From Gammaproteobacteria bacterium (GTDB taxonomy: Bacteria > Pseudomonadota > Gammaproteobacteria > SZUA-140): a stretch of DNA of 64,000 nt. Numbering within the stretch: the first letter of the stretch is position 1; every line of letters starts with the position of its first letter. Below the pieces are notes generated by a model. It saw nothing but the letters and a program-made list of their open reading frames with translations, was not told where the DNA came from and ran no database searches. Positions 11,617 through 46,803 of this stretch are shown piece by piece. The position numbers were made by a program, and so were the translations under genes. The stretch lies in assembly GCA_016716465.1 (NCBI GenBank), contig JADJWH010000007.1, positions 143,427-207,426 of the forward strand. Reading direction: 5' to 3'.

Positions 11617-11639
11617 TACAAAGCGAGAGTTCTATCACG

Positions 11640-12479: not shown

Positions 12480-12509
12480 TGTATTCCGCTGCAGCAGAGT
12501 TGACACATC

Positions 12510-13871
12510 ATGCCTATGAACTCAGAAGAGATCGCTATCAGGGTCGAGAAAGTCGCCAAGCGGTTCCGTCTTGGCCTGGAAGACGCCATGCACGATACCT
12601 TCGGGGCGGCCATGCTCGATTTCATCAAAAGCCCCCTCAAGAACTATCGATACTATCGTTCGCTTCATAAATTCGACGACTCCGCCGGCCCGGACGATCC
12701 GTCGAGCGAGCCGTCGGATATCCTGTGGGCGCTCAGAAGCGTTTCATTCGAGGTCAAACGCGGGGAGGTCCTGGGGATAATCGGCACCAACGGCGCTGGC
12801 AAATCCACCCTGCTCAAAATCCTGTCGCGAATCACCCCGCCCACACGCGGCTCGATCGAAATCAGAGGCCGGGTATCCAGCCTGCTCGAGGTCGGCACCG
12901 GTTTCCATAATGAGCTGACGGGCAGGGAAAATATCTATCTCAATGGCACCGTTCTGGGGATGAGAAAGAAGGAAATTGACCGGAAATTCGATGAAATCGT
13001 CGAGTTCTCCGGCGTCGAGCGTTTCCTTGATACTCCGGTGAAGCGCTATTCCAGCGGCATGCGCGTCCGCCTGGCTTTTTCGGTGGCAGCCCATCTGGAG
13101 CCCGAGATCCTGATCATTGATGAGGTGCTGGCGGTGGGTGACGCGGCATTTCAGAAGAAATGCATGAACAAGATGCAGGATGTCGGCGAAGGCGGCCGCA
13201 CGGTTCTCTTCGTCTCCCACAGCATGCCCGCGATCACCCGATTGTGCCATCGAGCGATACTGCTGAATCAGGGTACCGTGCTGAAGGATGGTTTGACGCA
13301 TGACGTGGTGAGCGCCTATCTGGGATCTGGCCAGGGATCGCCATCACACAAACAATGGGACGATCCGGGCACGGCACCCGCAGGTAAAGTGGCGCGGTTG
13401 CTTGCCGTGCGAGCCCTGGATGCCGACCGCAAAATATCGAGCGCGATGAAGATTACTCAGCCGATCGCGATCGAGATTGAATTTGAGGTGATCGAGCCGG
13501 GATATATCCTGATGCCACATTTTCATGTCTTCAATGACGAAGGCGTGCGCCTGTTCGCGGCCTTGGACCAGGATCCGCAGTGGCGCGGAAAACAGCGCCC
13601 GAAAGGCCGCTATATTTGCCGTGGCTGGATTCCGGCGAACCTGCTGTCTGAGGGCTTGCTGTATGTGTCTCCCGCGCTAACGACACTGCAACCGGATATA
13701 CCGCAATTCATTGCCCGGGACGCCATCTCGTTCCAGGTAATGGACAGCCGGCATGAAGGCGCGGAGTCGGCGCGAGGGGACTATGCGAGGAATATCAAAG
13801 GGGTCATCAGACCGATGTTGAGCTGGGAGTCCGAAATCGTGGAGATACCAGGGCGGCGCTCAACCGCTTGA
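12510..13871 (+). CDS. wzt: ABC transporter ATP-binding protein with C-terminal polysaccharide-terminus-binding domain
   Basis: Walker A GTNGAGKST, signature YSSGMRVRL, Walker B ILIIDEV. About 190-aa C-terminal extension consistent with the Wzt_C beta-sandwich. Confidence 0.85.
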   Translation: MPMNSEEIAIRVEKVAKRFRLGLEDAMHDTFGAAMLDFIKSPLKNYRYYRSLHKFDDSAGPDDPSSEPSDILWALRSVSFEVKRGEVLGIIGTNGAGKSTLLKILSRITPPTRGSIEIRGRVSSLLEVGTGFHNELTGRENIYLNGTVLGMRKKEIDRKFDEIVEFSGVERFLDTPVKRYSSGMRVRLAFSVAAHLEPEILIIDEVLAVGDAAFQKKCMNKMQDVGEGGRTVLFVSHSMPAITRLCHRAILLNQGTVLKDGLTHDVVSAYLGSGQGSPSHKQWDDPGTAPAGKVARLLAVRALDADRKISSAMKITQPIAIEIEFEVIEPGYILMPHFHVFNDEGVRLFAALDQDPQWRGKQRPKGRYICRGWIPANLLSEGLLYVSPALTTLQPDIPQFIARDAISFQVMDSRHEGAESARGDYARNIKGVIRPMLSWESEIVEIPGRRSTA

Positions 13872-15967: not shown

Positions 15968-16060
15968 ATGGCGCGATGGATGGAGTGGCCGCATCCTCTC
16001 TTGGCGCGTCCGGATCCGGCGCCGGTGTGACAGGGGGCCAGGTACCGGCGGAGGTGCGGC

Positions 16061-16870
16061 GTGAAGCCCAGTAATCTGCTCGGGATTCTCGGCCATGCCG
16101 CGCCGGATTTTTTCATCATCGGGGTCCAGAAAGGCGGCACCACTTCGCTCTACAATTATCTCGCCCGTCATCCAGCGGTGCTTCCGGCGGTGGAAAAGGA
16201 GATTCACTATTTCAGTGAAAATTTCTATAGAGGCGAAGCGTGGTACAGCAAGCGCTTTCCGACCCGATACCACAAGCTGCGCCGCATGCTGGAGTTGCAT
16301 ACGCGTATCCTGACCGGAGAGGCAACCCCGTATTACATCTTCCATCCCCATGCCGCCCGACGGATCAGGGCGCGTCATCCACGCGCCAGGATCATCCTCA
16401 TGCTGCGCAATCCCGTCGATCGCGCCTATTCGCACTATCGTTATCACGTCAAGCTGGGTGTCGAGTCGCTGAGTTTCGAGGAGGCGATAGCCGCGGAGCC
16501 ACAGCGGCTGGCCGGGGAAATGGAGCGGATGATGGCCGATGAGTACTACTCCAGCGAAGCGTGCAAACTGTTTTCTTACCTGAGGCGCGGGATCTATGTC
16601 GACCAGATCCGGCGCTGGCGCGAATATTTTCCTCGCGAGCAGATGCTGGTCCTGAAAAGCGAGGATTTTTTTGCCAACCCGGCGGAGTCTTATCTGCAGG
16701 TCACCCGGTTTCTGGGCCTGGAGCACCATGATCTTAGCGCTTATGACACGTTCAATGCGGGCGCTGAATCGGCCCTGCGGTCTGACACACGGCAGGGGCT
16801 CGTGGAATATTTCCGGGCGAGTAACGAGCAGCTCTACGACTATCTGGGAGTCGATTTCGGCTGGAATTGA
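16061..16870 (+). CDS. Sulfotransferase (Sulfotransfer_1, heparan-sulfate-sulfotransferase-like PAPS-binding motifs)
   Basis: 5'-PSB loop IIGVQKGGTTSL, very similar to the animal HS sulfotransferase motif IIGV(R/K)KGGTRAL. 3'-PB motif RNPVDRAYSHY. GTG start. Confidence 0.8.
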   Translation: MKPSNLLGILGHAAPDFFIIGVQKGGTTSLYNYLARHPAVLPAVEKEIHYFSENFYRGEAWYSKRFPTRYHKLRRMLELHTRILTGEATPYYIFHPHAARRIRARHPRARIILMLRNPVDRAYSHYRYHVKLGVESLSFEEAIAAEPQRLAGEMERMMADEYYSSEACKLFSYLRRGIYVDQIRRWREYFPREQMLVLKSEDFFANPAESYLQVTRFLGLEHHDLSAYDTFNAGAESALRSDTRQGLVEYFRASNEQLYDYLGVDFGWN

Positions 16871-16893
16871 TGCTATAAATTTGCTCCGTATGG

Positions 16894-19800
16894 TTGGTGC
16901 CATTGATTGGCGGATATAGCTCAGTAAGCATGAATTTTCTCCCGCTCGTCGCCCGAGGTTTCAGCCAGGCCGTCCTGCTGGCCGCCCTCACGCTGTTACC
17001 GTTGACGATCCCCCCCGCGGCGGCGGCCGCGAATGCGCGTGCCGATTTCAACGGCGACGGGCGCACTGACCTGGCGATCGGTGTTCCGGGCGAGGATGTC
17101 GGGAGCATCATCGATGCCGGCGCCGTACGGATCGTTTATGGAAGCGGCAGTGGGGCGCCGGCGGCGGGTACAGAACAGATCTGGCATCTGGACAGCGTCG
17201 GTATACCGGGTACGGCGCAGTCGGGCGATCATTTCGGTGCGGCCATCGCCAGCGGGGATTTCAACCGGGACGGTTATACCGACCTCGCGGTGGGTATGCC
17301 GAACAAGAACGGCAATCGAGGCCAGATGCTGGTCATGTACGGCAGCGGCGCGGGTCTCAGCGCGGCCGGCAGCCAGATCTGGGATCAGGGGGTGCTCGCC
17401 GATGACCCGGAAACAGACGACCGCTTTGCATCCGCGCTCGTGGCGGGGGACTTCAACCGGGACGGATACGACGACCTCGCCGTCGGGGTTCCCGGGGAGG
17501 ATTATCCCGGCATCGGGCCACCTGAAGCCAACCCGCCGACTCCCAATTGCGATCCCTGCGTCAATGCCGGTGTGGTCAATGTGGTTTACGGCGGCCCCAG
17601 CGGCCTGACGGCCACGCGGAACGAGCTTTGGCACCAGGATCGCGGCGTTTCCTACGACGGCTGGGTTGAGCCACAGGACTGCTTCGGTGCAAGCCTGGCT
17701 TCCGCGGATTTCAATGGCGACGGCATAGATGATCTTGCCGTTGGCGTGCCGTGCGAGAACACCGGCGGCGCGGACGTGCCATTTCCGAACAACGGCGCGG
17801 TGAGCGTGTACTACGGTTCGACCGGCGGTCTGACGGGTGTCGGAGCGCAATACCTGCGGCAGTGGGCGGAAGACGTCGTCGATTATCCCCAGGCCAATGA
17901 TGCCTTCGGTTATGCCCTCGCGGCGGGAGATTTCGATGGTGACGGCCGCGCCGATCTGGCGATAGGCGTGCCGGGCGAGGATAGCGGCGGTATCAGCGAT
18001 GCCGGTGGCGTGGCGGTCTTTTACGGGGCTGCCGGCGGCCTGATCAGAAACGAGCTGTGGGGGACACACAGTCCGGATGTCATCGGCGACCCGGTCGCCA
18101 ATGCGCACTGGGGTTATGCGCTCGCCGCGGGAGATTTCAACCATGACGGGCGAGCTGATCTTGCGATCGGGGCACCCGGTGATAGCGTTTCGGCCATTAT
18201 CGAGGCCGGGTCCGTAAGCATACTTTACGGTGCCCCCACCGGACTGAGCGGCCAGTCCAGCCAACTGTTCACCCAGGATACCCCCGGCGTAGACGAGGTT
18301 GCCGAGCAGGTTGACTGGTTTGGACATACGCTCGCCGCTACCGATCTCGACGGCGATGGCGCTCAGGACCTCGTCATAGGCGTGCCATTCGAAGACTACG
18401 GATTCACCGTGGATGCGGGGGCCGTTCATCTCCTCTATGGCTCGGCAGGTACGGGGATTTCAGCAACCGGGAGCCGATTACTCGGTCAGGATGGACCAGG
18501 CAGCCAGGACATCAGCGAGGCAGGGGATCAATTCGGTGGTCGTCTGGTTCCGCGCCTCAACGGCGCGGCGCCCTGGCCGGATGAACCGACGAACTACATG
18601 ATGACGGCGCCGACCGCGGTGAATCTCACCGCGGAGGGTTCGGCGGACTGGGTTCATTGGGGCCGCGCCAGCGTAACAGCGCCGGATCGAAAATCCGGTG
18701 TTGCCCCCCAGATTGGCAACCTGTTTCCTCTGGGCGGGGCGAGTCCCGCGATCACGAACCAGACGAGCTCTGCCTATGCCTGGAGCGACGGCGCGCCACT
18801 CGCGACCCATTCCGGCACCAAATCCGGCGTTCGGGTGTTCAGCGCCGGCAATGGCTTCCAGTTCAGTGTGCCTGCAGATACGGGCTTCCGGACCCTCAAG
18901 GTCTATGTGGGAGCGAATGCCGCAAGAGGCCAATTTACCGCCAGTCTGAGTGATGGCAGTGCTCCGGCGTACACCACCGCGGTCGATCGCCGCAGTGGAC
19001 GCACCAGTCAGGTCATCACACTCAACTACCGCGCGGCATCGCCCGGCCAGACCCTGACCGTCAGCTACGTTTTGAACACGCTCTACCAGGCCAATCTCCA
19101 AAGCTGGATAACCCTCGAGTCGGCGGCACTGCGTGTTGCCGGGGATGATCGCCCGCCGATGCTTGAGCCGATCGGAAATCGAACCTTGCAGGAAGGCGAA
19201 CTGCTGAGTCTGGCCGTGGTCGCAGTGGATTCCGATGGTCCGGCCCCGCTGAGCCTGAGCCAGACCAATACGCTGCCCGGCAGCCCGAACATCCTGACCG
19301 ACAATGGCAACGGCAGCGGCACGCTGAACTGGACGCCGGCCGCGGGCTCCGCGGCCGGCAGCCCCTATTCGGTCACCGTCACGGCCACCGACGGCGCCGG
19401 GACCTCCTCGAGCACCAGCTTCACCGTGACCGTTCTCCCGGTCAGCTCGCACACGCCTTACGGCGGGAGCGCGTGGCCGATCCCGGGGATCATCGAGGCG
19501 GAGAACTACGACCTGGGCGGCTCAGGCGTGGGCTATTTCGACACCACGGCGGGCAACGCCGGCAATCTCTACCGCAGCGACGGCGTCGACATCTGGGTCG
19601 CCTCCGACGTGGATGGCGCCTACATGGTGGGCCAGACCAGCGCCGGCGAGTGGCTGGACTACACAGTCAACGTGGCAGCCGCCGGCAGCTACACGCTCAA
19701 TCTGCGGGTGGCGACGGCGGTGAACAACAAACGGCTGCGTATCCTGATGAACGGCGCCGACATCACCGGCTCGATCGCGGTGCCCAATACCGGCGGCTGG

Positions 19801-20694
19801 ACCGCCTGGACCACCCTCAGCCGGACGGTGACGCTCAATGCCGGCCAGCAGACCCTGCGCCTGCAGGTCGACAGCGGCAGCTTCAACGTCAACTGGATCG
19901 GTTTCACCTCCGGTTTCTCCAATGCCGCGCCCACCCTGAGCCCAATCGGCAATCAGACGGTGAATGAAGGGCAATTACTTGTCGTGCCGGTCTCGGCCAC
20001 TGACGCCGACGGTCCAGCCCCGCTGAGCCTGAGCCAGACCAGTACGCTGCCCGGCAGCCCGAACATCCTGACCGACAATGGCAACGGCAGCGGCACGCTG
20101 AACTGGACGCCGGCCGCGGGCTCCGCGGCCGGCAGCCCCTATTCGGTCACCGTCACGGCCACCGACGGCGCCGGGACCTCCTCGAGCACCAGCTTCACCG
20201 TGACCGTTCTCCCGGTCAGCTCGCACACGCCTTACGGCGGGAGCGCGTGGCCGATCCCGGGGATCATCGAGGCGGAGAACTACGACCTGGGCGGCTCAGG
20301 CGTGGGCTATTTCGACACCACGGCGGGCAACGCCGGCAATCTCTACCGCAGCGACGGCGTCGACATCTGGGTCGCCTCCGACGTGGATGGCGCCTACATG
20401 GTGGGCCAGACCAGCGCCGGCGAGTGGCTGGACTACACAGTCAACGTGGCAGCCGCCGGCAGCTACACGCTCAATCTGCGGGTGGCGACGGCGGTGAACA
20501 ACAAACGGCTGCGTATCCTGATGAACGGCGCCGACATCACCGGCTCGATCGCGGTGCCCAATACCGGCGGCTGGACCGCCTGGACCACCCTCAGCCGGAC
20601 GGTGACGCTCAATGCCGGCCAGCAGACCCTGCGCCTGCAGGTCGACAGCGGCAGCTTCAACGTCAACTGGATCGGTTTTTCGGGCATTAACTAG
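16894..20694 (+). CDS. Secreted FG-GAP (integrin-alpha-like beta-propeller) protein with two cadherin-like Ig modules and two CBM6 carbohydrate-binding modules
   Basis: Signal peptide (the start could instead be ATG 16930, MNFLPLVARGF...). At least seven FG-GAP repeats (DFNGDGRTDLAIGVPGED-type). Ig modules (PIGNQT..EG..L...V.A.D.DGPAPL.LSQT). CBM6 modules (PYGGSAWPIPGIIEAENYDLGG...NTGGW..W.T....V.LNAGQQTLRLQVD.GSFNVNWIGF). Confidence 0.8.
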   Translation: MVPLIGGYSSVSMNFLPLVARGFSQAVLLAALTLLPLTIPPAAAAANARADFNGDGRTDLAIGVPGEDVGSIIDAGAVRIVYGSGSGAPAAGTEQIWHLDSVGIPGTAQSGDHFGAAIASGDFNRDGYTDLAVGMPNKNGNRGQMLVMYGSGAGLSAAGSQIWDQGVLADDPETDDRFASALVAGDFNRDGYDDLAVGVPGEDYPGIGPPEANPPTPNCDPCVNAGVVNVVYGGPSGLTATRNELWHQDRGVSYDGWVEPQDCFGASLASADFNGDGIDDLAVGVPCENTGGADVPFPNNGAVSVYYGSTGGLTGVGAQYLRQWAEDVVDYPQANDAFGYALAAGDFDGDGRADLAIGVPGEDSGGISDAGGVAVFYGAAGGLIRNELWGTHSPDVIGDPVANAHWGYALAAGDFNHDGRADLAIGAPGDSVSAIIEAGSVSILYGAPTGLSGQSSQLFTQDTPGVDEVAEQVDWFGHTLAATDLDGDGAQDLVIGVPFEDYGFTVDAGAVHLLYGSAGTGISATGSRLLGQDGPGSQDISEAGDQFGGRLVPRLNGAAPWPDEPTNYMMTAPTAVNLTAEGSADWVHWGRASVTAPDRKSGVAPQIGNLFPLGGASPAITNQTSSAYAWSDGAPLATHSGTKSGVRVFSAGNGFQFSVPADTGFRTLKVYVGANAARGQFTASLSDGSAPAYTTAVDRRSGRTSQVITLNYRAASPGQTLTVSYVLNTLYQANLQSWITLESAALRVAGDDRPPMLEPIGNRTLQEGELLSLAVVAVDSDGPAPLSLSQTNTLPGSPNILTDNGNGSGTLNWTPAAGSAAGSPYSVTVTATDGAGTSSSTSFTVTVLPVSSHTPYGGSAWPIPGIIEAENYDLGGSGVGYFDTTAGNAGNLYRSDGVDIWVASDVDGAYMVGQTSAGEWLDYTVNVAAAGSYTLNLRVATAVNNKRLRILMNGADITGSIAVPNTGGWTAWTTLSRTVTLNAGQQTLRLQVDSGSFNVNWIGFTSGFSNAAPTLSPIGNQTVNEGQLLVVPVSATDADGPAPLSLSQTSTLPGSPNILTDNGNGSGTLNWTPAAGSAAGSPYSVTVTATDGAGTSSSTSFTVTVLPVSSHTPYGGSAWPIPGIIEAENYDLGGSGVGYFDTTAGNAGNLYRSDGVDIWVASDVDGAYMVGQTSAGEWLDYTVNVAAAGSYTLNLRVATAVNNKRLRILMNGADITGSIAVPNTGGWTAWTTLSRTVTLNAGQQTLRLQVDSGSFNVNWIGFSGIN
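19237..20678 (+). repeat. Direct tandem duplication with a 774-bp period inside the FG-GAP/CBM6 gene; 636 bp are perfectly identical (19269-19904 equals 20043-20678)
   Basis: Aligned by eye at offset 774. Two mismatches in the first 32 bp, then no differences to the end of the CBM6 module. Each unit encodes a partial Ig module plus a full CBM6. Confidence 0.9.
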
Positions 20695-20847
20695 CTCAAC
20701 TGGATTCAAATCCCCGGAATTTTGCCCGATACTCTCTGCATAGACACAGCCTCAAGAGCGCGTCAATTCCGTGGACAGCACCGGGTTTGGGTCGCGATAG
20801 CTTCGTTGGGGCAGGATCATTTTCGATAATTTAGCGGGACAATCGTG

Positions 20848-21789
20848 ATGTCGACCAATGAGCAGCGGCTGATCTTTCTGGGCGGGGCCCCCCGGTCGGG
20901 AACAACCTTGTTACAGAACATCCTCGATATGCATCCGGATATCCTGGGTGGTCCGGAGTTTCTGCATTTGCCGGATATCCTGCAACTTCGCGGCAAGCTG
21001 CGCGACTCCGTTGCCCGCGGATGGATCGATCTGATCTGCTCAGCGGAGGAGGTCGATGAACGCATGCGTAATCTCATTGGCGGATTTCTGTTGACCTTCG
21101 CCGACAGGCACGGCGCCAAATTGCTCAGCGAGAAGACACCCGAGAATGTCCTGGTCTTTCCCAAATTGGTGGAGTTGTTTCCGGGTTCGAAGTTCATTCA
21201 CATCGTGCGCGATCCACGCGCAACCGTGGCTTCTTTGCTGGAAGTTGGGAAAAAGGCCCGGCGTAAAGGTGAAACCCCGGCGTTGTTCACACGTGACGCA
21301 CAGTCCGCGATCAGGCATGTGCGACGCTGCCTGGATTCCGGCTTTTCGGCCTCCCGTACCGCGCCGGACAAGGTGTATACGCTGGTTTATGAACGATTGA
21401 TCCGGGACCCGGAGGCCGAGGGACGCCAGATCTGCGGTTTCCTCGGTGTGTCATGGGCGCCGGAGATGTTACGGCCCGGCGAGAAGCGCCACATGGGTGA
21501 GAGCGCCATTACCGTCAACTCAAAAGAGATCTGGTATGACGCCAAAACGTACAACTCCAATCCTCAACCGGACAGCCTGGAGAAATGGCGCGAAACGCTG
21601 GCGGCGCACGAAAAGCTGATGATTGCGCGCGCGTTCTCCGATTCAGAGGATTTGAGCCGGCTGGGGTACGATTTCACGCTCAGCGATATGGGGACGATGG
21701 ATCGCGCGCGCGGCGCCGTGGTAACGTGGCTGCGGGGGCTCCGTCGCCGGCTCGGCGGCGGGCTGCGCCGGCTTGCCGGAGATAAATGA
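20848..21789 (+). CDS. Sulfotransferase family protein (Sulfotransfer_3-like)
   Basis: 5'-PSB P-loop LGGAPRSGTTLL near the N-terminus. IVRDPRATVAS 3'-PB-like motif. Confidence 0.8.
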   Translation: MSTNEQRLIFLGGAPRSGTTLLQNILDMHPDILGGPEFLHLPDILQLRGKLRDSVARGWIDLICSAEEVDERMRNLIGGFLLTFADRHGAKLLSEKTPENVLVFPKLVELFPGSKFIHIVRDPRATVASLLEVGKKARRKGETPALFTRDAQSAIRHVRRCLDSGFSASRTAPDKVYTLVYERLIRDPEAEGRQICGFLGVSWAPEMLRPGEKRHMGESAITVNSKEIWYDAKTYNSNPQPDSLEKWRETLAAHEKLMIARAFSDSEDLSRLGYDFTLSDMGTMDRARGAVVTWLRGLRRRLGGGLRRLAGDK

Positions 21790-21797: not shown

Positions 21798-22205
21798 TCA
21801 GTATTCCGCGTCGATCCCGTATCCACGGCCATCAGTAGGTGCCACGAGGAAGCGGACGTGCATCATTCCACCGTCCTGCAGATGGATCTCGGCATCGACC
21901 TCGACCTTACCTTCGGTGGTCTCTCTTGCATCCGAGATGCTGAACGTCGCGCCTGCGTAGGAATTCAACAATACCTGGCCATAGCCCGGACTTTCCAGCA
22001 GGGACTGACGTTCCTTGCGGAAGTCGGGCGTGATGAACTTGCTCAACTCGGCCGTATTTCCGCTGATCAGGCCGGCCATGTATCCCTCGACCGTTGCGCG
22101 CGCCATGGATTCGGCGGTCGTCATGGGCGCGGCGCCCAGCGCGGGGTGCGCGGTGAAGACCAGGAGTGCCAGGACGGTTGCCGTAAATGGGTGCATCGAT
22201 CTCAT
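21798..22205 (-). CDS. Small secreted/periplasmic hypothetical protein (135 aa), co-oriented with and directly downstream of the giant gene
   Basis: Clean signal peptide MRSMHPFTATVLALLVFTAHPALGA. 38-bp gap to the upstream gene. Confidence 0.5.
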   Translation of the reverse strand: MRSMHPFTATVLALLVFTAHPALGAAPMTTAESMARATVEGYMAGLISGNTAELSKFITPDFRKERQSLLESPGYGQVLLNSYAGATFSISDARETTEGKVEVDAEIHLQDGGMMHVRFLVAPTDGRGYGIDAEY

Positions 22206-22242: not shown

Positions 22243-25200
22243 TCAATTCTTGACCACGATCGCAATGTAATTTGCCGCGGCACCGGTCGCCGCGGCGTTG
22301 GCGCCTCCTAGGAGGATGGTCCCCGACGCATTGTCCTTGCGATAGAGCTTCATCTGCGGCGTGGACGGGTTGCTGGTGTAGATCCGCAATCCGGAATCCA
22401 CGAATCCGGAGGATAGCCAGGAGGGCAGCGTGGCGGCATTGGCATCATACGCCACGTACAGCGTCGCGGGCGCCGGAATGTTGAACGACAGGTAATCGCT
22501 GTTGGCGGCGTTCTTGTCCAGATTGCCGGTCAGTATCCAGCGCCCATGCGCGAGCGCCGCCGGAATCGGGCTGTTGATCGTGTAGGTTTGATCGACATAG
22601 TACGGATCGCCGGGCTCCATCAGGTTTTCTTTGTAGGGAAGCGGGCTTGCGCACGAGCCGCCCTGGGACAAGCGCAGGCACAGGGCGCTGGCGACGAATG
22701 GCGGCGTCGAGTTTCCGGTCAGCGCGTTGGCGATCAGGCGCGCCATGACCTCGTAGCCGAGCGCGTTCGGATGAAGGTTGGTGGCGTACAGGTAGAATTT
22801 GTTCTCGCTGCCGAGGAAATAATCGTACAGATTCGCCCCCAATTGTCGGTCCGTGAGCTCATTGGCGATCACGGCATTGTATCCGTCACGAATCAGCAGA
22901 TTGCGTGCATGATTCGCCGGATCCGCATAGGGCGCCTGGAATGGATCGCCGAACCGGGGCGGCGCCCGGTTGACGACGACGGTTTTTCCCGCGGCGGTGA
23001 GCTGGTTGATAGTTGCCTGCAGATTACCCTTGAAGGTGCCGTTGCACTGGCTGCCGTTGCAGCCGAGGCCACTCGGTGTGAAGAGCGTTCCATTGGCGTC
23101 GTTGACGCCGATGGTTACGATGAATCTGTTGGAATCCGGATAGCCCTCGAGCACCGAGGCGAGCCTGTCGTTCAGCAAGTTGGCCGACGTGTCGCCGGGG
23201 ACGCCGGCGTTGTTCACGAGCGACGGATAGGGTTGTTGCGAGTTGAGCAAATCGGTCAGGGCGGCTTCATAACCCTGTGAGGAGATCACCCAGCCGCCCT
23301 GCGAAATACCGTCGCTGGAAGTGCTGTCGTCCAGCCCGTTGGTGATACTGTCGCCGAACGCCACATGGTTATCGCCACCGGAGCTTATGGAGGTATTGGT
23401 GTCGCTGTCCAGCTGGACATTGAACTGATCGCGCAATACCGCGCTCAATTGATAGACCCCCTGGGCCGGCGCGGTGCAGGAGGCGGTGAACAGGCCGGCA
23501 TGTCCCGTCTCGCTCGCGACGGTACAGGAGTTGAGCAGGCTGTTCAGCTGGAATTCGACCGTGGCTCCGGCGGGCTTGTTCATCACGACGGCGCCCACGT
23601 CGAACGTGGTGCCCGGAGAGACCGAGTAGGACACGGGCGCGGATATCGCGACGGCCGGAACCGTATCATTGTCCTGGATGTAAACATCGTCGAAGGCGCA
23701 CTGGTCGCGGCAGTAGAGTCCCACGGTGCCGCTGCTCAGGCTCGTGTCGTAAGCCCCGAACAGTTTCTCGCCGTTGACGCTGGCGATGACGACCGGTCCC
23801 TGGGCCTTCATGGTGACGTTCAGGGGCGTGCCGGTCAGATAGCCCCTGGCGTTTTTGGCCAGGGTATGGAAGGTGCCTCCGGCGCGGGTTTCGAGCCGTG
23901 CGAAGCCGTTCGCCGCGCTGTACGAGAGACGCGTATAGCTGTTGTCGTTGGGGTTGACGCGGATCATGACACCGATGTCCTGTCCCGAGGCCGCCGTCGG
24001 TAGAGCTTTGACGCTGAATGTGTAGTCGCCGAGCGTTATCCCTGGGACCAGATAGGAATAGGTGCCGCGATGGTATCCGCCCTGCAGGGCGCTTCCATTG
24101 AAGCCGACGAAGTTGTTCTGGCGGTATTCGCCGGCGGTCACGCCCCAATTCGGGTCTTGTCCGGAGTCATTGACGACCTGCCAGTTGGTGGCGAAGCCGC
24201 TGGAGAAATCCTCGGAGTAGGGAAGCGGCAACGCTCCGGCCGCCGTGAAGCTGATCCAGTTGACGTTGAAGCTGCCGTTGTCGATCTGGAGGCGCATCAC
24301 CTTCTGGCCCGCGCTGCCGATGTTGACCGGGATGCTGACGGTCTGCCAGGTGATCCAGCCGCCGGTATTCGGAATGGCGATCGGTCCGGCGATATCGTTG
24401 CCATTCATCAGTACGCGCGCCTGTTTGCCATTGGCCGCGGTCGCCACCCGCAGGTTCAACATGTAGGAGCCGGCGCTTTGCACCTCGACCGTGTATTCCA
24501 GCCACTCACCCGCCTTGGTCGAGCCCACCATATAGGCGCCGCTGACATCGGAAGCATTCCAGATGTCGACGTTGTCGCTCCGGTACAGATTGCCGTCGTT
24601 GCCGACGGTGGCATCCTGGTAAGCGATACCGGGCCCACCGAGGTCGTAGTTCTCCGCCTCTATGACCCCGGGGATCGGCCAGGGCGTGCCGCCATAGGGG
24701 GGCTGCGTGCTGGAAATGACTGTGACCTTGAAGCTCGCGCTGGAGAAGGCGCCGTCGCCATCGGTGGCCGTGACGGTGACCGAGTAGGGACTGCCGGCGG
24801 CCGCGCCCGTGGACGGCGTCCAGTTCAGCGTGCCGGTACCGTTGCCGTTGTCGGTCAGGATGAAGGGGTTGCCGGGCAGGGTGTTGGTCTGGCTCAGGGT
24901 CAGGGGCGCCGGGCCGTCGGTGTCGGAGGCCGAGACCGGCACGACGAGCGGCTGGCCTTCAGTTACGACCTGATTTCCGATGGGACTCAGGGTCGGTGGC
25001 AGGTTGTCGGTCACCGTGACTGTGAAGATCATGCTGGAGAAATGGCCGGCGCCGTCGGTGGCGGTAACGGTGATTGAATAGGGACTCCCGGCGGAGGAGC
25101 CAGCGGGAGGCGTCCAGTCGATGAACCCGTTGCCGCTGCCATAGTCCGTCAGGATGTTCGGGTTGCCGGGCAGGGTGTTGGTCTGGCTCAGGGTCAGGGG

Positions 25201-28200
25201 CGCCGGGCCATCCGTATCAGACGCGGTGACCACCAGGCCCAGCGACTGCCCCTCAGAGATCGCCTGGTTGCCGATCGGACTCAGTACGGGCGCCTGATTC
25301 CCAGCGACCGAAATGGTGAAGCTGGTGCTCGAGGAGGCCCCGGCACCATCGGTGGCCGTGACGGTAACGGAATAAGGGCTGCCGGAGGAGTCCCCTGTTG
25401 CGGGCGTCCAGTTCAGCGTGCCGGTGCCGTTGCCGTTGTCGGTCAGGATATTCGGACTGCCGGGCAGGGTGTTGGTCTGGCTCAGGGTCAGGGGCGCCGG
25501 GCCGTCGGTGTCGGAGGCCGAGACCGGCACGACGAGCGGCTGGCCCTCGGTCACGGTCTGATTGCCGATCGGATTCAGGGTCGGTGGGGCATTGGAGGAC
25601 CCGTCCGAGGTGAAACTGATCCAGTTGACGTTGAAGCTGCCGTTGTCGACCTGCAGGCGCAGGGTCTGCTGTCCGGCATTGAGCGTCACCGTCTTGCTGA
25701 TCGTCTGCCAGGTGGTCCAGCCCCCGGTGTTGGGCACCGTGATCGGACCGGTGATGTCGGCCCCGTTCATCAGAAAGCGCAGCCGCTTGCCGTTCGCCGC
25801 CGTCGCTACCCGCAGATTGAGCGTGTAGCTCCCGGCGGCCGCCACGTTGACCGTGTATCGCATCCATTCGCCTGTGCTGGTCTGGCCCACCATATAGGTG
25901 CCACCGGTGTCACCGGAATTCCAGATGTCGATATCGTCGCTGCGGTACAGGTTGCCGGCATTGCCCGCTGTGGTATCGAAATAGCCCACGTCCGAGCCGC
26001 CCAGATCGTAGTTCTCCGCCTCGATGAGGCCAGGGATCGGCCAGGGGAATCCGCCGTAGGGCGCCTGTCCGTTGGTTTGTATGGTGAACGTCCGACTGAT
26101 GACGGCGCTGTTGTTGTATCCGGTCCGTATCGCGATGGCCTTGACTGTGGTGGTAGCCGTCAAGGTGAATGGCGCCGTGTACAGCGTGGAGGTGGCGTTC
26201 GGCGTACTGCCATCCGTGGTGTAATGGATCGCTGCCCCCGGCGTGGTGCTGGAGAGTTGCACATCGACCGAGTTCTGGAACGTGCCTCCGTCCGGCACGA
26301 AGGCGGGTTCCGCGACGGCCGGCGCGCCGGCCTGCGAGTCGAACACCAGGTAGGCGACCTGCTCGGCTGAGAGATGCGAGCGTTCCACATCCAACTTCTG
26401 GTCTTCGTCGATCGCCACGGCGAGCTGGCTGGGCGAGACGGCGCCGGGTCCGTACTGTACCACCCAGCCGCCGTTGGTCCCTTTCATCCCGGCCTGGCTG
26501 ACGATGGCTATCTCAGGCTGGGTCAGGCCGCTGATCGGGATATTGAATGGCGGGCTGTCCTCGATCCCCTGCGCCACGGCGGAACTGAGTCCGGCCAGCG
26601 CCGTATCTCCATCGAGCGTGCTGATTCCCGCGTTCATGACCACATAGCCGAGCGTTTCCGCGCTGCGGGTCTTGTCGGGGTCTTCGCCGACGTGTTTGCC
26701 TATATAGAGGGTGTTGGTGTTGGGTGGATTCTGCGCCGAGCTGCCACGGCTCCAGAAGGTGGAGAAGTCGGCATCGTTATACGACATGACCTGTCCCAGC
26801 ACGACCGGTTGGGCGTACGAATTGGCGTAGGGCCGTTGCGTACCCACCCAGCTCGACGCATTGTCCGTCCGGTTTGTCCTCAGGCGCAGCGCCTCCAGGT
26901 CCACGCCGTGATGGGCCTGGTTATACACTCCCGCTTCGACCACCAGGTACTGGACGGTGGCCGGCGTGATCGCCGTGCCCGAGTTGTCGGCCCGCTCCAG
27001 CCGGATGTCGAAGCTGGCATGATCGACGGTGAGGTCATCGGCGTTGCGGATCCGGGTGACCACCGGTGGCATGGCGGCATCGGGATATTGCACACTGGTC
27101 AGTACGATTGGCGCGCGATAGGGATGACTCAGATTGATCGTGCGCCAGGCGCCGTCGACGTTGTTGAGTACCCCGCGCTCCAGGTCCAGCGGAGGCTGCC
27201 ACGGCACCAGACTTTCTTCCGCCTTGTAACCATTCAGTACCGCCATCAGTTCGGTGACCTTGGTCGGGTTGGAAGCGGCGAGATTCTGCGTCTCGTAGGG
27301 GTCACTGGCAAGGTTGTACAGTTCGAAGGTGCCGCCGGGCGCGTTCTGCACCAGTTTCCAGTCCTGTCTCCGCACCGCATAATGCGTCTTCCAGAGCGTG
27401 TCGGTGAAGGTGGAGCGGTTCTCGAAGAAAAGATCACGCGCGGGATACTGCGGGCTTTGTCCAAGCAATGTCGGCAGTATGGATCTGCCCTCGATCGGAT
27501 GTTGGATGGTAACGCCCGCGGCCTCGGCGATCGTTGCGTAGAGGTCCATGGTCAAGGCGATTTCCGCGCTTTGGGTGCCGGGCTGGATCCTGCCTGGCCA
27601 CACCGCTGCCATGGGTACGCGGAGGCCGCCCTCGTAGAAATCGAGTTTTCCACCCCGATACGGGCCATTATTGGCGTTATGCAGCAGGTACCCGCCGTTG
27701 TCGGACGTATAAATAATGAGCGTATTGTCGTAGATGCCGTTGTCTTTCAACTCCTGCACGACTTGACCGATGCTGTCGTCGAGGTGTTCGATGAGCGCGA
27801 CAAGCTTCGCCCGCTCGGGGTCAATGCCGGGTTCACGCGCCAGTACCTGATTCAGATAGGATTGCGGCGGCTGCACCGGGTCGTGAGGCGCACTGAAGGC
27901 CAGATACATCATGAACGGCTGGGATGAGCCCGCTCGTTCCTGGATGTAGTCCTTCGCCCATTGAGTCAGCAGGTCGGTCGTATGGATGCCCTGCAGTGAC
28001 GCCGGATCGAGCACCGTGTCATTGAGCATCAGCAGGTTGTCGCCCGGCCATCCATAGCTGGATCCGTCATGTGTGTAATAATCGCCCGCGGCCCCGATGA
28101 ATCCGTGAAAATGGTCGAAACCCCGGTGCGTCGGCAGGTTGTGCGGATCCCCACCCAGGTAGTCACCCAGGTGCCATTTACCAATCAGACCGGTGGTATA

Positions 28201-29373
28201 GCCGGCGGATTTGAGCAATTCCGGCAGGGTGGGGCCCGTGGGGGAAAAGTACCCCATGTTGGTGACCGGGTCGCGGGCCACGGTACCGGGTACGCCCACC
28301 AGCGCGGGATAACGCCCCGTCATCAGCGCGGCCCGGGTGGGGGAACAGACACTGCTGTTGGCGTAAAAATTATTGAAACGCATGCCATGCGCGGCGAGGT
28401 CGTCGAGATTCGGCGTCTCCAGGTCGGCCGCGAGCCCGGTGTAGGCAACGTCGCCATACCCCTGATCGTCGGTGAGGATTACGACGATATTGGGCGGTGG
28501 GGCGGACTGTATCGTCACCGCGAAGCTCAGGCTGGAAAACGCGCCGGCGCCATCGGTCGCGGTGACGGTAACCGAATAAGGGCTGCCCGCGGCGCTGCCC
28601 GCGGGGGGCGTCCAGTTCAGCGTGCCGCTACCATTGCCGTTGTCGGTCAGGATGTTCGGGTTGCCAGGCAGGGTGTTGGTCTGGGTCAGCGTGAGTGGGG
28701 CGGGACCGTCGCTGTCGGAGGCTGTAAAAGGGAGATTCCAGGATATCCCCTCGGTGACCATCTGGGTACCGATGGGGTTTATCACAGGAGCGGCATTGTT
28801 GGCGGTAAAGCTGATCCAGTTGATGTTGAGGCTGCCGACGTCGATCTGCAGCCGCATCACATGTTGTCCGGCGCTCAGATTGACCGTTCTGCTGACGGTC
28901 TGCCAGGTGGTCCAGCCGCCGGTGTTGGGTATCGCGATGGGGCCGGTGATATCCACCCCATCCATCAGGACGCGCGCCTGTTTTCCGTTCACGGCGGTGG
29001 CCGTTCGCAGGTTCAGGACATAGCTGCCGGTAGCCGCGACGTTGACTGTGTATGCCAGCCACTCTCCGACTTTGGTCGAGCCGACCATGTAGGCGCCGCT
29101 GACGTCCGCGGAGTTCCAGATGTCGACGTTGTCGGTTCGGTAGAGCCCGCCCTCGTTGCCCGAAGTGGCGTCCTGGTAGCCGACACCGGAGCCACCCAGA
29201 TCGTAGTCTTCCGCCTCGATCAGCCCGGGTACGGCCCATGGGGTACCGCCAAAAGGCGTTTGCACGGCCTCCGCATGCGGAGACAGCCCAAGAACCAGAA
29301 AGAAGGTACTGAGAAGAAGGTACTGCTTGGTTAACCTAAGATGCACCCAGGCGTCCGGCGTTTTATTGAACAT
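22243..29373 (-). CDS. Giant secreted multi-modular polysaccharide-modifying protein: CBM6 - Ig - Cys-type sulfatase - unknown beta region - CHB_HEX_C-like - CBM6 - 3x Ig - CBM6 - ConA/LamG-like - SGNH/GDSL hydrolase - C-terminal domain
   Basis: Signal peptide. Sulfatase signature NIVVILTDDQGYGD...CSPTRAALMTGRYP, with the FGly Cys at codon 343 (28345-28347). GDSL block VAFGDSITNG (about 23341-23370). Three CBM6 modules matching the IEAE(N/D)YDLGG...NTGGW...NWISF consensus. Four PIGNQ...DGPAPLTLSQTNTLPG Ig modules. Confidence 0.85.
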   Translation of the reverse strand: MFNKTPDAWVHLRLTKQYLLLSTFFLVLGLSPHAEAVQTPFGGTPWAVPGLIEAEDYDLGGSGVGYQDATSGNEGGLYRTDNVDIWNSADVSGAYMVGSTKVGEWLAYTVNVAATGSYVLNLRTATAVNGKQARVLMDGVDITGPIAIPNTGGWTTWQTVSRTVNLSAGQHVMRLQIDVGSLNINWISFTANNAAPVINPIGTQMVTEGISWNLPFTASDSDGPAPLTLTQTNTLPGNPNILTDNGNGSGTLNWTPPAGSAAGSPYSVTVTATDGAGAFSSLSFAVTIQSAPPPNIVVILTDDQGYGDVAYTGLAADLETPNLDDLAAHGMRFNNFYANSSVCSPTRAALMTGRYPALVGVPGTVARDPVTNMGYFSPTGPTLPELLKSAGYTTGLIGKWHLGDYLGGDPHNLPTHRGFDHFHGFIGAAGDYYTHDGSSYGWPGDNLLMLNDTVLDPASLQGIHTTDLLTQWAKDYIQERAGSSQPFMMYLAFSAPHDPVQPPQSYLNQVLAREPGIDPERAKLVALIEHLDDSIGQVVQELKDNGIYDNTLIIYTSDNGGYLLHNANNGPYRGGKLDFYEGGLRVPMAAVWPGRIQPGTQSAEIALTMDLYATIAEAAGVTIQHPIEGRSILPTLLGQSPQYPARDLFFENRSTFTDTLWKTHYAVRRQDWKLVQNAPGGTFELYNLASDPYETQNLAASNPTKVTELMAVLNGYKAEESLVPWQPPLDLERGVLNNVDGAWRTINLSHPYRAPIVLTSVQYPDAAMPPVVTRIRNADDLTVDHASFDIRLERADNSGTAITPATVQYLVVEAGVYNQAHHGVDLEALRLRTNRTDNASSWVGTQRPYANSYAQPVVLGQVMSYNDADFSTFWSRGSSAQNPPNTNTLYIGKHVGEDPDKTRSAETLGYVVMNAGISTLDGDTALAGLSSAVAQGIEDSPPFNIPISGLTQPEIAIVSQAGMKGTNGGWVVQYGPGAVSPSQLAVAIDEDQKLDVERSHLSAEQVAYLVFDSQAGAPAVAEPAFVPDGGTFQNSVDVQLSSTTPGAAIHYTTDGSTPNATSTLYTAPFTLTATTTVKAIAIRTGYNNSAVISRTFTIQTNGQAPYGGFPWPIPGLIEAENYDLGGSDVGYFDTTAGNAGNLYRSDDIDIWNSGDTGGTYMVGQTSTGEWMRYTVNVAAAGSYTLNLRVATAANGKRLRFLMNGADITGPITVPNTGGWTTWQTISKTVTLNAGQQTLRLQVDNGSFNVNWISFTSDGSSNAPPTLNPIGNQTVTEGQPLVVPVSASDTDGPAPLTLSQTNTLPGSPNILTDNGNGTGTLNWTPATGDSSGSPYSVTVTATDGAGASSSTSFTISVAGNQAPVLSPIGNQAISEGQSLGLVVTASDTDGPAPLTLSQTNTLPGNPNILTDYGSGNGFIDWTPPAGSSAGSPYSITVTATDGAGHFSSMIFTVTVTDNLPPTLSPIGNQVVTEGQPLVVPVSASDTDGPAPLTLSQTNTLPGNPFILTDNGNGTGTLNWTPSTGAAAGSPYSVTVTATDGDGAFSSASFKVTVISSTQPPYGGTPWPIPGVIEAENYDLGGPGIAYQDATVGNDGNLYRSDNVDIWNASDVSGAYMVGSTKAGEWLEYTVEVQSAGSYMLNLRVATAANGKQARVLMNGNDIAGPIAIPNTGGWITWQTVSIPVNIGSAGQKVMRLQIDNGSFNVNWISFTAAGALPLPYSEDFSSGFATNWQVVNDSGQDPNWGVTAGEYRQNNFVGFNGSALQGGYHRGTYSYLVPGITLGDYTFSVKALPTAASGQDIGVMIRVNPNDNSYTRLSYSAANGFARLETRAGGTFHTLAKNARGYLTGTPLNVTMKAQGPVVIASVNGEKLFGAYDTSLSSGTVGLYCRDQCAFDDVYIQDNDTVPAVAISAPVSYSVSPGTTFDVGAVVMNKPAGATVEFQLNSLLNSCTVASETGHAGLFTASCTAPAQGVYQLSAVLRDQFNVQLDSDTNTSISSGGDNHVAFGDSITNGLDDSTSSDGISQGGWVISSQGYEAALTDLLNSQQPYPSLVNNAGVPGDTSANLLNDRLASVLEGYPDSNRFIVTIGVNDANGTLFTPSGLGCNGSQCNGTFKGNLQATINQLTAAGKTVVVNRAPPRFGDPFQAPYADPANHARNLLIRDGYNAVIANELTDRQLGANLYDYFLGSENKFYLYATNLHPNALGYEVMARLIANALTGNSTPPFVASALCLRLSQGGSCASPLPYKENLMEPGDPYYVDQTYTINSPIPAALAHGRWILTGNLDKNAANSDYLSFNIPAPATLYVAYDANAATLPSWLSSGFVDSGLRIYTSNPSTPQMKLYRKDNASGTILLGGANAAATGAAANYIAIVVKN
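22750..23375 (-). other. SGNH/GDSL esterase-like domain within the giant protein
   Basis: Block I GDSITNG, later GVND-like block (TIGVNDANG). D-x-x-H-like C-terminal block (NLHPNALGY). Confidence 0.6.
27214..28506 (-). other. Sulfatase catalytic domain within the giant protein (approximately aa 290-720)
   Basis: C-x-P-x-R formylglycine motif and the N-terminal metal-binding DDQGYGD block; KWHLG, YTSDNGG-type sulfatase blocks downstream. Confidence 0.8.
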
Positions 29374-29442: not shown

Positions 29443-29471
29443 ATGATAGAGAAAACCGCCTGGTTTCTCAA
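29443..29471 (-). promoter_or_regulatory. Candidate sigma70-like promoter for the giant gene (minus strand: TTGAGA - 17 nt - TATCAT)
   Basis: Hexamers read on the minus strand in the AT-rich 190-bp region upstream of the ATG at 29373. Confidence 0.25.
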
Positions 29472-34954: not shown

Positions 34955-35899
34955 TCAGGCCCAGTCGGCGTCGGAATAAAACTCGCGCGCGACGTCCTCG
35001 ACGTAACCCCGAATTCTCAGGATCTCTTCGCCCGACAGCCGGTGTTTCCAACTGGAAATGTTCTGCTGGCTGTCGAGTTTGAGAGTTTTCTCGGTGCCCG
35101 ATGCCCGTTCGGGGTTGGACTTCCCAGTGTGTTCGGCGATCACGGAGCGCGCTTTGTCCGTGTAGGGCAGCTCCAGTTTTTTGTACAGATCCGCGAAGGA
35201 CCGGGCGGGGTCGAGCGAGATGTCCTCATGGCGCAGGAAGGTCCAGTCAGGATGCCGTTTTTTGTAGGTTGAAATCACATGGTGATGCATCGCCCAGGCC
35301 AGCGACGCGCGCTCGATCAGGTCGTGCTCGCCACCGCTCATCTCACGTATTCGCCGTTCAAAGGGGCCGAGATAATCCCGCATCAGCAAGGTTTGCGGCA
35401 ACGCCCATTTTTCAGGATGGGAGGCCCATCCCAGCCGCTTCATGCTCGCGACGAATGCCGCGGGGTGGCGGATCATGACGATGCAGTGCATGTCGAAGTG
35501 GCCGCACAGCCACTCGGCCGACATCAGGGCGATCGGGTCCTTGATCAGGGGACGCCCTCCACCACGACGCAGCTCGCGGGATGCGCTCAGGTTGCGCGCG
35601 ATGCCCAGCAGGTCCCGGGGCGAGCGCGCGGAGCGCAGCCCATGCCTCCAGTCGTATCGCCCTTCGAGCAGTCGTTGCACCGCGGCGTGATATTCGTCGC
35701 CGTTATCCTCGCAGATATGAATGAAGTAGTGAGGCACCTTGAGCCCGTAAAGTTCCTCGCTCGCCTTGACGAGCGGGTTGAACGGTTCATGTACGTAGTA
35801 CAGCGCGGGATCGATGGTGAGCATGCGTCCGAGCCAAGTGGTGCCCGAGCGCGGGGCGCCGGTGACCAGGACGGGCTTGATCATTGCGGTGGCGTTCAT
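34955..35899 (-). CDS. Sulfotransferase family protein (Sulfotransfer_3-like)
   Basis: 5'-PSB P-loop VLVTGAPRSGTTWL. Overall similarity to the gene at 20848. Confidence 0.75.
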   Translation of the reverse strand: MNATAMIKPVLVTGAPRSGTTWLGRMLTIDPALYYVHEPFNPLVKASEELYGLKVPHYFIHICEDNGDEYHAAVQRLLEGRYDWRHGLRSARSPRDLLGIARNLSASRELRRGGGRPLIKDPIALMSAEWLCGHFDMHCIVMIRHPAAFVASMKRLGWASHPEKWALPQTLLMRDYLGPFERRIREMSGGEHDLIERASLAWAMHHHVISTYKKRHPDWTFLRHEDISLDPARSFADLYKKLELPYTDKARSVIAEHTGKSNPERASGTEKTLKLDSQQNISSWKHRLSGEEILRIRGYVEDVAREFYSDADWA

Positions 35900-38179: not shown

Positions 38180-38860
38180 TCAGGATGTGGCGGTTCGGAT
38201 TCTGACCACCCTGGCGGGATTGCCGACCGCGATGGCCATGGCCGGGATGTCACGTGACACCACGCTTCCGGCGCCCACGATGGCCCCTTCACCGATGGTT
38301 ACGCCGTCGAGCACGATGGTGCCAACTCCCAGCCAGACATCATCACCGATGACAATACCGCCTTTCGTCTGTACCGGCTGTTGTCTCAGTGGCTGATCAG
38401 ATGACATCCCGTGGTTATATGGGTAGAACGAACAGTTCGGTGCGATTTCCACCCGGCGGCCGATCCGAATCGAACCCACGTACGCCGACAACTGGCAGCG
38501 CGGCTGGATATGGCTTTCATCCCCGATGATGATCTTTCCGTCTGTGCCGGTTTGCAGGAAACAGTCCCGGTGGATATGTACCCCGGCGCCGAGTTCGATC
38601 TGTCCTCCGCCGTGATCCTCATAGATGAGCGCCTGTTCACCAATGAAGACCCGTGCATTCAGTCTGAGGTTCGAGTGGTGCAGGGTCGCGCAGGGGGATA
38701 TGTAGCCATTTTTGCCCATGGCTGCCAGCGGTAGACGGCCGTAGAAAGGAGGCCAGCCGAGTCCCGCAAGCCCGCATGCCGCGCGTCCCAGCGGTCCCTG
38801 TCCGGAGAATTTCATCCAGAACCGCGTCCAGCGGTTTCTGATGCGGGTCTTTATCGACAT
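38180..38860 (-). CDS. Hexapeptide-repeat (left-handed beta-helix) O-acetyltransferase, WcaF/Mac-like
   Basis: Tandem hexapeptide repeats (IGD.VWLG.G..V..GV.IG.GA.VGAGSVV). N-terminal region aligns with WcaF. Start chosen at the internal Met (MSIKTRIRN). Confidence 0.75.
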   Translation of the reverse strand: MSIKTRIRNRWTRFWMKFSGQGPLGRAACGLAGLGWPPFYGRLPLAAMGKNGYISPCATLHHSNLRLNARVFIGEQALIYEDHGGGQIELGAGVHIHRDCFLQTGTDGKIIIGDESHIQPRCQLSAYVGSIRIGRRVEIAPNCSFYPYNHGMSSDQPLRQQPVQTKGGIVIGDDVWLGVGTIVLDGVTIGEGAIVGAGSVVSRDIPAMAIAVGNPARVVRIRTATS

Positions 38861-39014
38861 GGATGTGTGTCTTTTATCGGTTCGGATAAACGGAAACCGC
38901 ATTATATCGCAGTTCAAGCAGGGTGCCCGGTTTCGCGGCTTGACTGGGCTCCTCGGTTGGGCATACTGGCGGGAAAGGCCGGAAGAGCCGAATCAGACGT
39001 GCCAGGGAGGCGTG

Positions 39015-46723: not shown

Positions 46724-46803
46724 CGGCTCCAGGGCCTTTGAGTTTTCTGGATGCCAGTCTTTACAAGAACAATAAGCAATTAATTATTCAGGGGCTTTTC
46801 GAG

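Follow-up and report, generated by a model that had tools for sequence, protein, structure and literature searches.

Several exopolysaccharide (EPS) loci encode secreted or periplasmic enzymes that act on the polymer of the same locus, among them PelA, PgaB, AlgL/AlgX, PslG and BcsZ. These are deacetylases, glycosidases, lyases and acetyltransferases, and to our knowledge none of them is a sulfatase. Sulfated EPS is barely documented in bacteria outside the cyanobacteria, and the authors of the synechan study knew of none elsewhere (PMC8205485). Granular sludge and Pontiella have yielded sulfated polymers that resemble glycosaminoglycans, with no machinery known for them (PMC7356697). We found no description in the literature of a bacterial sulfatase encoded in an EPS locus, of a bacterial analogue of the animal Sulf enzymes, or of an enzyme like the one described here, a 2376-amino acid (aa) modular protein encoded on contig JADJWH010000007.1 of the gammaproteobacterial assembly GCA_016716465.1. 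The gene lies in a stretch of 64,000 nucleotides (hereafter the window, from whose first letter all positions are counted) that, judged by its gene content, is one large polysaccharide region. The protein combines a sulfatase and an SGNH esterase domain, both recognised with high confidence, with a chain of modules that none of the EPS enzymes named above possesses. Its catalytic units are ordinary; what is rare, and specific to one lineage, is their fusion, and the locus type in which it occurs is poorly studied. We give an even chance to the reading that the protein is secreted, anchored in the matrix and bifunctional, taking both sulfate and acyl groups off the EPS of its own locus.

The open reading frame (ORF) is intact and present as described in an initial annotation of this DNA (Table 1). 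Its deposited counterpart, MBK9132726.1, bears the generic name 'MAG: sulfatase-like hydrolase/transferase [Gammaproteobacteria bacterium]'. The NCBI gene model has 2340 aa and begins 36 codons later, at V37, the residue that directly follows the predicted cleavage of the signal peptide, so that this peptide is omitted. The conserved N-terminus of an ortholog, P0002, supports the ATG at 29373 as the start. The signal peptide was already part of the initial annotation and is plausible, with an n-region, the hydrophobic segment LLLSTFFLVLGL and a predicted cleavage site between AEA and VQ (the peptide ending in …LLLSTFFLVLGLSPHAEA before VQ). A sigma-70-like promoter match is located about 70 nt upstream of the ATG, within a 193-bp intergenic gap. 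No PEP-CTERM sorting signal was found on this or any other protein of the window.

The ortholog P0002 (2479 aa) is encoded on contig JADLCS010000006 of another metagenome-assembled genome (MAG), SJ243. It is collinear with the 2376-aa protein at 80-84% identity, with the same N-terminus, the same module order and one additional He_PIG module. A codon-level comparison of the two gave ratios of nonsynonymous to synonymous substitutions (dN/dS) of 0.064 for the sulfatase, the most constrained module, 0.098 for the SGNH domain, 0.185 for an unannotated 'mid' domain and 0.09-0.22 for the binding and spacer modules. Every module, both enzyme halves included, is under purifying selection. The initial annotation had considered that the ORF might be split by frameshifts. 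A collinear ortholog in an independent MAG and dN/dS values of 0.06-0.22 across all modules exclude a frameshift or chimeric assembly as the source of the long ORF. Among 5.8 billion protein clusters, the only look-alikes were the protein itself, its full ortholog P0002 and the fragment P0137, which is 92% identical and covers only the sulfatase end; the full architecture is rare.

Module borders were set by Pfam on the whole protein and by mapping the modules against each other (Table 1). The Pfam scan bore out the domains that had been read from the sequence: Sulfatase at residues 294-621 (E 1.3e-59) with SGSH_C at 579-703, CBM_6 in three copies (overall E 5e-58), He_PIG/Big_9 Ig-like modules in four copies, CHB_HEX_C_1 at 1027-1092 (E 1.5e-21) and Lipase_GDSL_2 at 2005-2209 (E 6e-18). 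The three CBM6 copies, which match the CBM6 family model, are 70-77% identical to one another. Three parts had been missed, namely the mid domain (722-1018), an Ig-like linker (~1901-1995) and a C-terminal beta-sandwich (2226-2376). Residues 1713-1900 gave no Pfam match. The earlier guess of a ConA/LamG- or DUF1080-like module at this place agrees with the predicted structure of residues 1690-2376, a confident model (predicted local distance difference test, pLDDT, 90.8; predicted template modelling score 0.88) whose N-terminal jelly roll resembles CBM66 of the DUF1080 type (template modelling score 0.83).

The sulfatase domain (residues 291-710) contains an alkaline-phosphatase-like N-terminal domain and a C-terminal subdomain. 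Cys343, correctly named before as the formylglycine Cys, stands in the motif C343-S-P-T-R347 followed by AALMTGRYP, and this motif is kept in the ortholog and in 27 relatives. The S1 catalytic set of ten residues is complete (D302, D303, C343, R347, K399, H401, H497, D558, N559 and K576), with D302, D303, D558 and N559 as metal-binding and K399, H401, H497 and K576 as catalytic residues, and these columns are invariant or nearly so in the alignment with the 27 relatives. Best matches in the PDB are S1_19 enzymes (E 3e-66 to 1e-63, 35% identity, end-to-end alignment), and S1_16, S1_15 and ARSB-type matches are nearly as good. The domain is an S1 sulfatase, with S1_19 as its nearest solved subfamily and others close behind. 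The S1_19 carrageenan 4-O-sulfatases PsS1_19A (6bia/6b0j) and PsS1_19B (6prm) share the C-x-P-x-R motif and the full catalytic and metal set. They are single-domain catabolic enzymes of ~450-480 aa from carrageenan utilisation loci, whereas the domain described here belongs to a 2376-aa chain of modules encoded in a biosynthetic locus.

The SGNH domain shows a three-layer alpha/beta/alpha flavodoxin-like fold. The GDSL block VAFGDSITNG was given exactly in the initial annotation and spans residues 2004-2013, with G2007-D-S2009 as block I. The residues of blocks I-III (S2009, G2060 and N2091-D2092) and the block V His (H2201) occupy columns that are invariant in a 13-member family alignment, and a Cys-x4-Cys loop of the disulfide type follows block III. 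Its nearest structural neighbours are a PVA esterase (9kqz), PbeAcXE (7toh/7tog), YxiM (2o14) and the sialate O-acetylesterase SIAE (8f9q). These are polymer or carbohydrate esterases in which, as here, the SGNH domain is packed on appended beta-sandwich modules. With only 12-25% identity to them, the present protein differs in its extra Cys-x4-Cys loop, its family-specific C-terminal beta-sandwich, its CBM66-like N-terminal module and a Thr in place of the Asp of the D-x-x-H motif.

The neighbouring genes suggest what the substrate could be. Six sulfotransferases had been claimed for the locus; five have strong Pfam matches and the sixth is weak. The claimed O-acetyltransferase is a hexapeptide enzyme closest to WbbJ/WcaF, with scores below the curated cut-offs. 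Together with the glycosyltransferases, the Wzm/Wzt exporter and the XrtA-type export and regulation genes of the locus, these cytoplasmic enzymes would make a sulfated, acetylated polymer. The modifying enzyme would then have Cys343 converted to formylglycine by a maturase encoded outside the window, followed by Sec export. Once outside, the three CBM6 modules, the CBM66-like module, the C-terminal beta-sandwich and perhaps the mid domain would tether it to the polymer, with the He_PIG and CHB_HEX_C modules as spacers. Three other secreted proteins of the window carry the same CBM6, 59-83% identical to those of the 2376-aa protein, and a common ligand can therefore be argued for. The He_PIG modules of one of them, the 1266-aa protein, are 70-85% identical to those described here, and across the four proteins the identity among CBM6 and He_PIG modules ranges from 59 to 85%. 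Through formylglycine-343 the S1 sulfatase would cleave sugar sulfate esters, and the SGNH domain would remove O-acyl groups, probably by a Ser2009-His2201 dyad. The outcome could be a tuning of matrix charge and acylation after export, or a loosening of the matrix for dispersal. Because of its place within a gene cluster for a putatively sulfated and acetylated polysaccharide, the enzyme probably trims that polymer after export. Only tentatively, and as a possibility we rather doubt, do we go further and suggest a writer-and-eraser system for matrix sulfation, in which the enzyme de-esterifies the very polymer that was sulfated and acetylated by the same locus.

Comparison with homologues indicates that the protein is a fusion of two independent units, A (sulfatase and mid domain) and B (SGNH). 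Unit B comprises residues 1713-2376, that is the CBM66-like, Ig-like, SGNH and C-terminal sandwich modules, and occurs in stand-alone proteins of ~570-1200 aa at 38-63% identity. We scanned for unit B in one genome per species and counted neighbours within 10 kb of it; sulfotransferases in related loci were called with an iterated hidden Markov model (HMM), single-sequence phmmer having missed known ones. Unit B was present in 37 species-representative loci and stood alone in 36 of them. Almost all belong to uncultured Gammaproteobacteria (Chromatiales, Thiogranum, Thiohalobacter, Competibacteraceae, Woeseiaceae, Pseudomonadales), with a few in Desulfobacterota and Hydrogenedentota. Genes for polysaccharide synthesis or export were found nearby in 19 of the 37 loci (ABC-2 exporter in 11, DUF4910 in 9), sulfotransferases in 8 and CBM6, He_PIG or CHB_HEX modules in 24. 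A sulfatase or mid domain was near unit B in a single locus, that of the SJ243 ortholog, which is syntenic with the present one (sulfotransferases, FG-GAP/ASPIC, family 2 glycosyltransferase (GT2), hexapeptide transferase, ABC-2 exporter, DUF4910 and C-methyltransferase). In the metagenome locus L009 a stand-alone unit B lies among five Pfam-called sulfotransferases. MAG MFD01721.bin.1.242 has a syntenic locus with an XrtA-type ATPase, FG-GAP/ASPIC proteins, two sulfotransferases, DUF4910 and a C-methyltransferase, where a 1650-aa protein has the order [CBM6-CHB_HEX]n-CBM6-unit B, without a sulfatase.

Unit A is found at 49-62% identity in the large modular proteins P0003, P0005, P0006, P0007 and P0010. 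One of the four unit-A homologues whose surroundings were read has a sulfotransferase context; it is P0005, behind which lie an arylsulfotransferase-like gene and one of the Sulfotransfer_3 family. The most economical explanation is that a CBM6-decorated SGNH esterase of this locus type captured a unit of sulfatase and mid domain in one lineage. By this comparison, the SGNH half appears as the conserved partner of these polysaccharide loci and the sulfatase half as a lineage-specific insertion. Both halves also co-occur unfused in one genome, MAG P01_B01_bin.5 (JBCCGT01), which has three stand-alone SGNH units (L013, L014 and L015) and, on another contig (L004), the 2615-aa sulfatase-plus-mid protein P0010. 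Each of the two unrelated sulfatase-plus-mid proteins P0007 (L002) and P0003 (L007) precedes a protein of ~700-760 aa (L002 14470-16746 and L007 10661-12781) in which multihaem cytochrome c and TPR signatures are faintly visible, and may be in a conserved partnership with that neighbour.

Several observations weigh against an enzyme that edits the matrix of its own producer. Firstly, the sulfatase domain shares 52-55% identity with hundreds of ordinary, uncharacterised enzymes of ~465 aa that are sulfatases standing alone. Many belong to Planctomycetota and others to further polysaccharide degraders, and they are much closer to it than the solved enzymes, of which catabolic carrageenan sulfatases come nearest. 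No FGE or anSME Pfam family was found among the ORFs scanned in the 64-kb window. Secondly, the sulfatase fusion is limited to one lineage, and therefore desulfation is no general feature of these loci; the unit-A homologues P0003, P0007 and P0010 lie outside sulfotransferase/EPS loci. Thirdly, the triad Asp position of the SGNH domain is occupied by Thr2198, so that block V lacks the Asp of the D-x-x-H motif. The initial annotation, which expected conserved catalytic residues, was right for Cys343 and the GDSL Ser and overlooked this substitution. Lastly, sulfation and acetylation of the polymer are read from gene content, and passage across the outer membrane is assumed.

The first of these points would fit a foraging enzyme that strips sulfate and acetyl groups from foreign glycans, of algae or of the EPS of neighbours, for other degraders, its position in an EPS locus being incidental. 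We consider this unlikely. It is true that the nearest sulfatase relatives are abundant stand-alone enzymes of degraders of the PVC type (Planctomycetes, Verrucomicrobia, Chlamydiae), that the solved relatives act on carrageenan, GalNAc or mucin, that CBM6 is typical of glycan-degrading enzymes and that the distant unit-A homologues lie outside EPS loci. Sulfatase-esterase fusions are moreover common in planctomycete-type metagenome proteins (P0022-P0056 with Abhydrolase_3/BD-FAE, P0063 with GDSL), and the general idea of such a fusion is therefore not new. The earlier statement that no characterised bacterial protein with this architecture was known holds in that we found no paper on one and the architecture is rare. 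The planctomycete-type proteins likewise unite an S1 sulfatase and a carbohydrate-type esterase in one polypeptide, but the esterase is mostly an alpha/beta-hydrolase rather than SGNH, CBM6, He_PIG and mid domains are absent, and the sulfatase is only 32-38% identical to that of the 2376-aa protein; P0063 (GDSL, sulfatase and WbsX) is an independent fusion. Against foraging, no glycoside hydrolase, lyase, TonB-dependent receptor or sugar transporter or uptake gene was found among the ORFs scanned in the window. The gene is embedded among biosynthetic genes in an arrangement kept in the ortholog, many genomes show synteny between the SGNH half and biosynthesis genes, and the same CBM6 module is common to several proteins of the locus.

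The third point concerns the chemistry of the SGNH half. Thr also occupies the 2198 position in the six closest members of the family (P0121, P0122, P0123, P0127, P0128 and P0002), and more distant members have Asp or Glu. SGNH esterases with a Ser-His dyad are known, and activity without the triad Asp is possible. Because the triad Asp is missing, we propose a Ser2009-His2201 dyad. The non-canonical triad could also mean an altered chemistry, namely that of an extracytoplasmic O-acyltransferase of the AlgX/AlgJ, PatB or OatA kind, in which case the protein would add acyl groups and remove sulfate during polymer maturation. SGNH proteins that modify polysaccharide or peptidoglycan are often transferases (AlgX, PatB, OatA), and, like that of AlgX, the domain is joined to carbohydrate-binding modules. 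However, the window ORFs scanned include no MBOAT or AT3 membrane acyl carrier, and the cytoplasmic WbbJ/WcaF-like acetyltransferase already explains acetylation. An acyltransferase thus seems very unlikely to us.

The mid domain has a size of about 285-297 aa and is beta-rich and extracellular. It has no match in Pfam, NCBIfam or among PDB sequences. Its conserved acidic motifs are GKHVGEDxD… and DEDQxxDxERxHxxEQ, and its structure model has pLDDT values of about 45-89. The 1897 cluster representatives (50% identity) in which we found it often repeat it 2-4 times in tandem and are giant proteins that also contain PKD, Big_9, cadherin-like, Lcl_C or matrixin-like parts; its alignment comprises 300 full-length copies. 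Least probable of all, and hardly credible to us, is that the 2376-aa protein is mainly a structural matrix protein or adhesin whose (nearly) inactive enzyme-like domains serve as lectins cross-linking the sulfated polymer: binding and spacer modules make up about two thirds of its length, the mid domain is characteristic of very large, adhesin-like proteins, the SGNH triad lacks a member and a sulfatase without maturase would be an inactive binder of sulfate esters, yet ortholog and family keep every catalytic and metal residue of S1 as well as the Ser, Gly, Asn and His of the SGNH domain, and no module is more constrained than the sulfatase.

If the enzyme edits its own matrix as proposed, it can be compared with animal Sulf1 and Sulf2, which are also secreted S1 formylglycine sulfatases with a polymer-binding region of their own and edit sulfation after synthesis. 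The Sulfs have a large basic hydrophilic insert within the sulfatase domain, whereas residues 291-710 are contiguous here, polymer binding would come from CBM6-type modules, and kinship exists only at the level of family S1. The 'bacterial analogue' of the initial annotation can thus be kept as a functional analogy only, the defining hydrophilic insert being absent.

Further genes of the window are included in Table 1. Directly downstream of the 2376-aa gene, a small secreted protein of 135 aa is encoded that has no family match and only faint NTF2-like hints; homologues occur in 18 of the 37 unit-B loci, in 11 of these immediately downstream on the same strand. The first genes of the window have models of the XrtA/PEP-CTERM system as best NCBIfam matches, all below cut-off (the ATPase model TIGR03015, 296 bits against 324; TIGR03007, 255 against 279; TIGR03018, 158 against 231; TIGR03027, 143 against 180), and the window contains no exosortase and no PEP-CTERM tail. 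Three paralogous FG-GAP/ASPIC proteins are interleaved with sulfotransferases, an arrangement also seen in the ortholog locus and in MFD01721.bin.1.242. Many GT2 and GT4 genes follow from ~34 kb on. GC content falls from ~0.61 to 0.42-0.47 across ~46000-60000, where a GT4 block, a probable polymerase-like membrane protein and an asparagine-synthase-like gene are located; this drop points to a sub-cluster gained by horizontal transfer. In both the 908-aa and the 842-aa protein the N-terminal half has no family match and could be an unrecognised enzyme. A long ORF at 15659-16903 on the minus strand was rejected as probably spurious, as it has no family match and encloses the sulfotransferase gene at 16031-16867 (+).

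Table 1. Modules of the 2376-aa protein and other features of the window, with positions counted from the first letter of the window.
Feature	Position	Strand	Basis or remark
Whole ORF	22243..29373	-	2376 aa, intact
Predicted Sec signal peptide, residues 1-36	29266..29373	-	Read from sequence; N-terminus kept in P0002
CBM6 module 1, residues 40-190	28804..29256	-	Pfam and module comparison
He_PIG/Big_9 Ig-like module 1, residues 191-290	28504..28803	-	Pfam and module comparison
S1 formylglycine sulfatase domain, residues 291-710	27244..28503	-	
Unannotated beta-rich mid domain, residues 722-1018	26320..27210	-	No family match
CHB_HEX_C_1/Fn3_assoc module, residues 1019-1100	26074..26319	-	Pfam
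CBM6 module 2, residues 1105-1255	25609..26061	-	Pfam and module comparison
He_PIG/Big_9 modules 2-4, residues 1259-1554	24712..25599	-	Pfam and module comparison
CBM6 module 3, residues 1559-1710	24244..24699	-	Pfam and module comparison
LamG/ConA-like jelly roll (CBM66/DUF1080-like), residues 1713-1900, start of unit B	23674..24237	-	
Ig-like beta-sandwich linker, residues ~1901-1995	23389..23673	-	Model secondary structure; weak Big_1 hint only
SGNH/GDSL esterase domain, residues 1996-2225	22699..23388	-	
C-terminal beta-sandwich, residues 2226-2376	22246..22698	-	Always with SGNH domain in unit-B family
Sigma-70-like promoter match TTGAGA-17-TATCAT, 10/12	29443..29471	-	Consensus match only
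Small secreted 135-aa protein	21798..22205	-	No family match
WcaJ-like priming transferase, then export protein, beta-barrel, chain-length determinant, tyrosine kinase, ATPase	15-6678		
C-methyltransferase, dTDP-sugar epimerase, Wzm/Wzt exporter, DUF4910	9833-15233		
Wzm/Wzt-type ABC-2 polysaccharide exporter (permease and ATPase)	11613..13871	+	
Sulfotransferase	16031..16867	+	Pfam E 8.7e-20
1266-aa FG-GAP protein with same CBM6 and He_PIG modules	16894..20694	+	69-85% identical
Sulfotransferase	20845..21789	+	Strong Pfam match
FG-GAP/UnbV_ASPIC protein, ~700 aa	29567-31651	-	
FG-GAP/UnbV_ASPIC protein, ~700 aa	31648-33801	-	
Sulfotransferase	34955..35899	-	Strong Pfam match
FG-GAP/UnbV_ASPIC protein, ~700 aa	36052-38154	+	
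Hexapeptide-repeat acetyltransferase, closest to WbbJ/WcaF (polysaccharide O-acetyltransferases)	38180..38917	-	Below curated cut-offs
Sulfotransferase	38841..39845	+	Strong Pfam match
908-aa protein with three same CBM6, a fourth divergent CBM6 and same CHB_HEX_C	43598..46324	-	Three CBM6 59-68% identical
Sulfotransferase	46738..47751	+	Strong Pfam match
Possible sixth sulfotransferase, N-terminal motif only	57244..58215	-	Pfam E 0.005; custom HMM E 3e-6
842-aa protein with two same CBM6 modules	60362..62890	-	N-terminal half without family match

The locus type, with up to six sulfotransferases, an acetyltransferase, an ABC exporter, CBM6 proteins and, here, a sulfatase-esterase, is a testable candidate for both making and remodelling a sulfated polymer. 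The mid domain merits a family model and a structure of its own, and the conserved CBM66-like/Ig-like/SGNH/beta-sandwich family and its small partner protein merit annotation. Should the enzyme act on its own matrix, desulfation would join deacetylation, epimerisation and cleavage as a modification of EPS after export, and the enzyme would be a useful tool. It would then be the first case of bacterial post-export editing of a self-made sulfated EPS, a functional parallel to the animal sulfotransferases and Sulfs, and would point to a widespread, unrecognised family of sulfated-EPS loci in uncultured Gammaproteobacteria.

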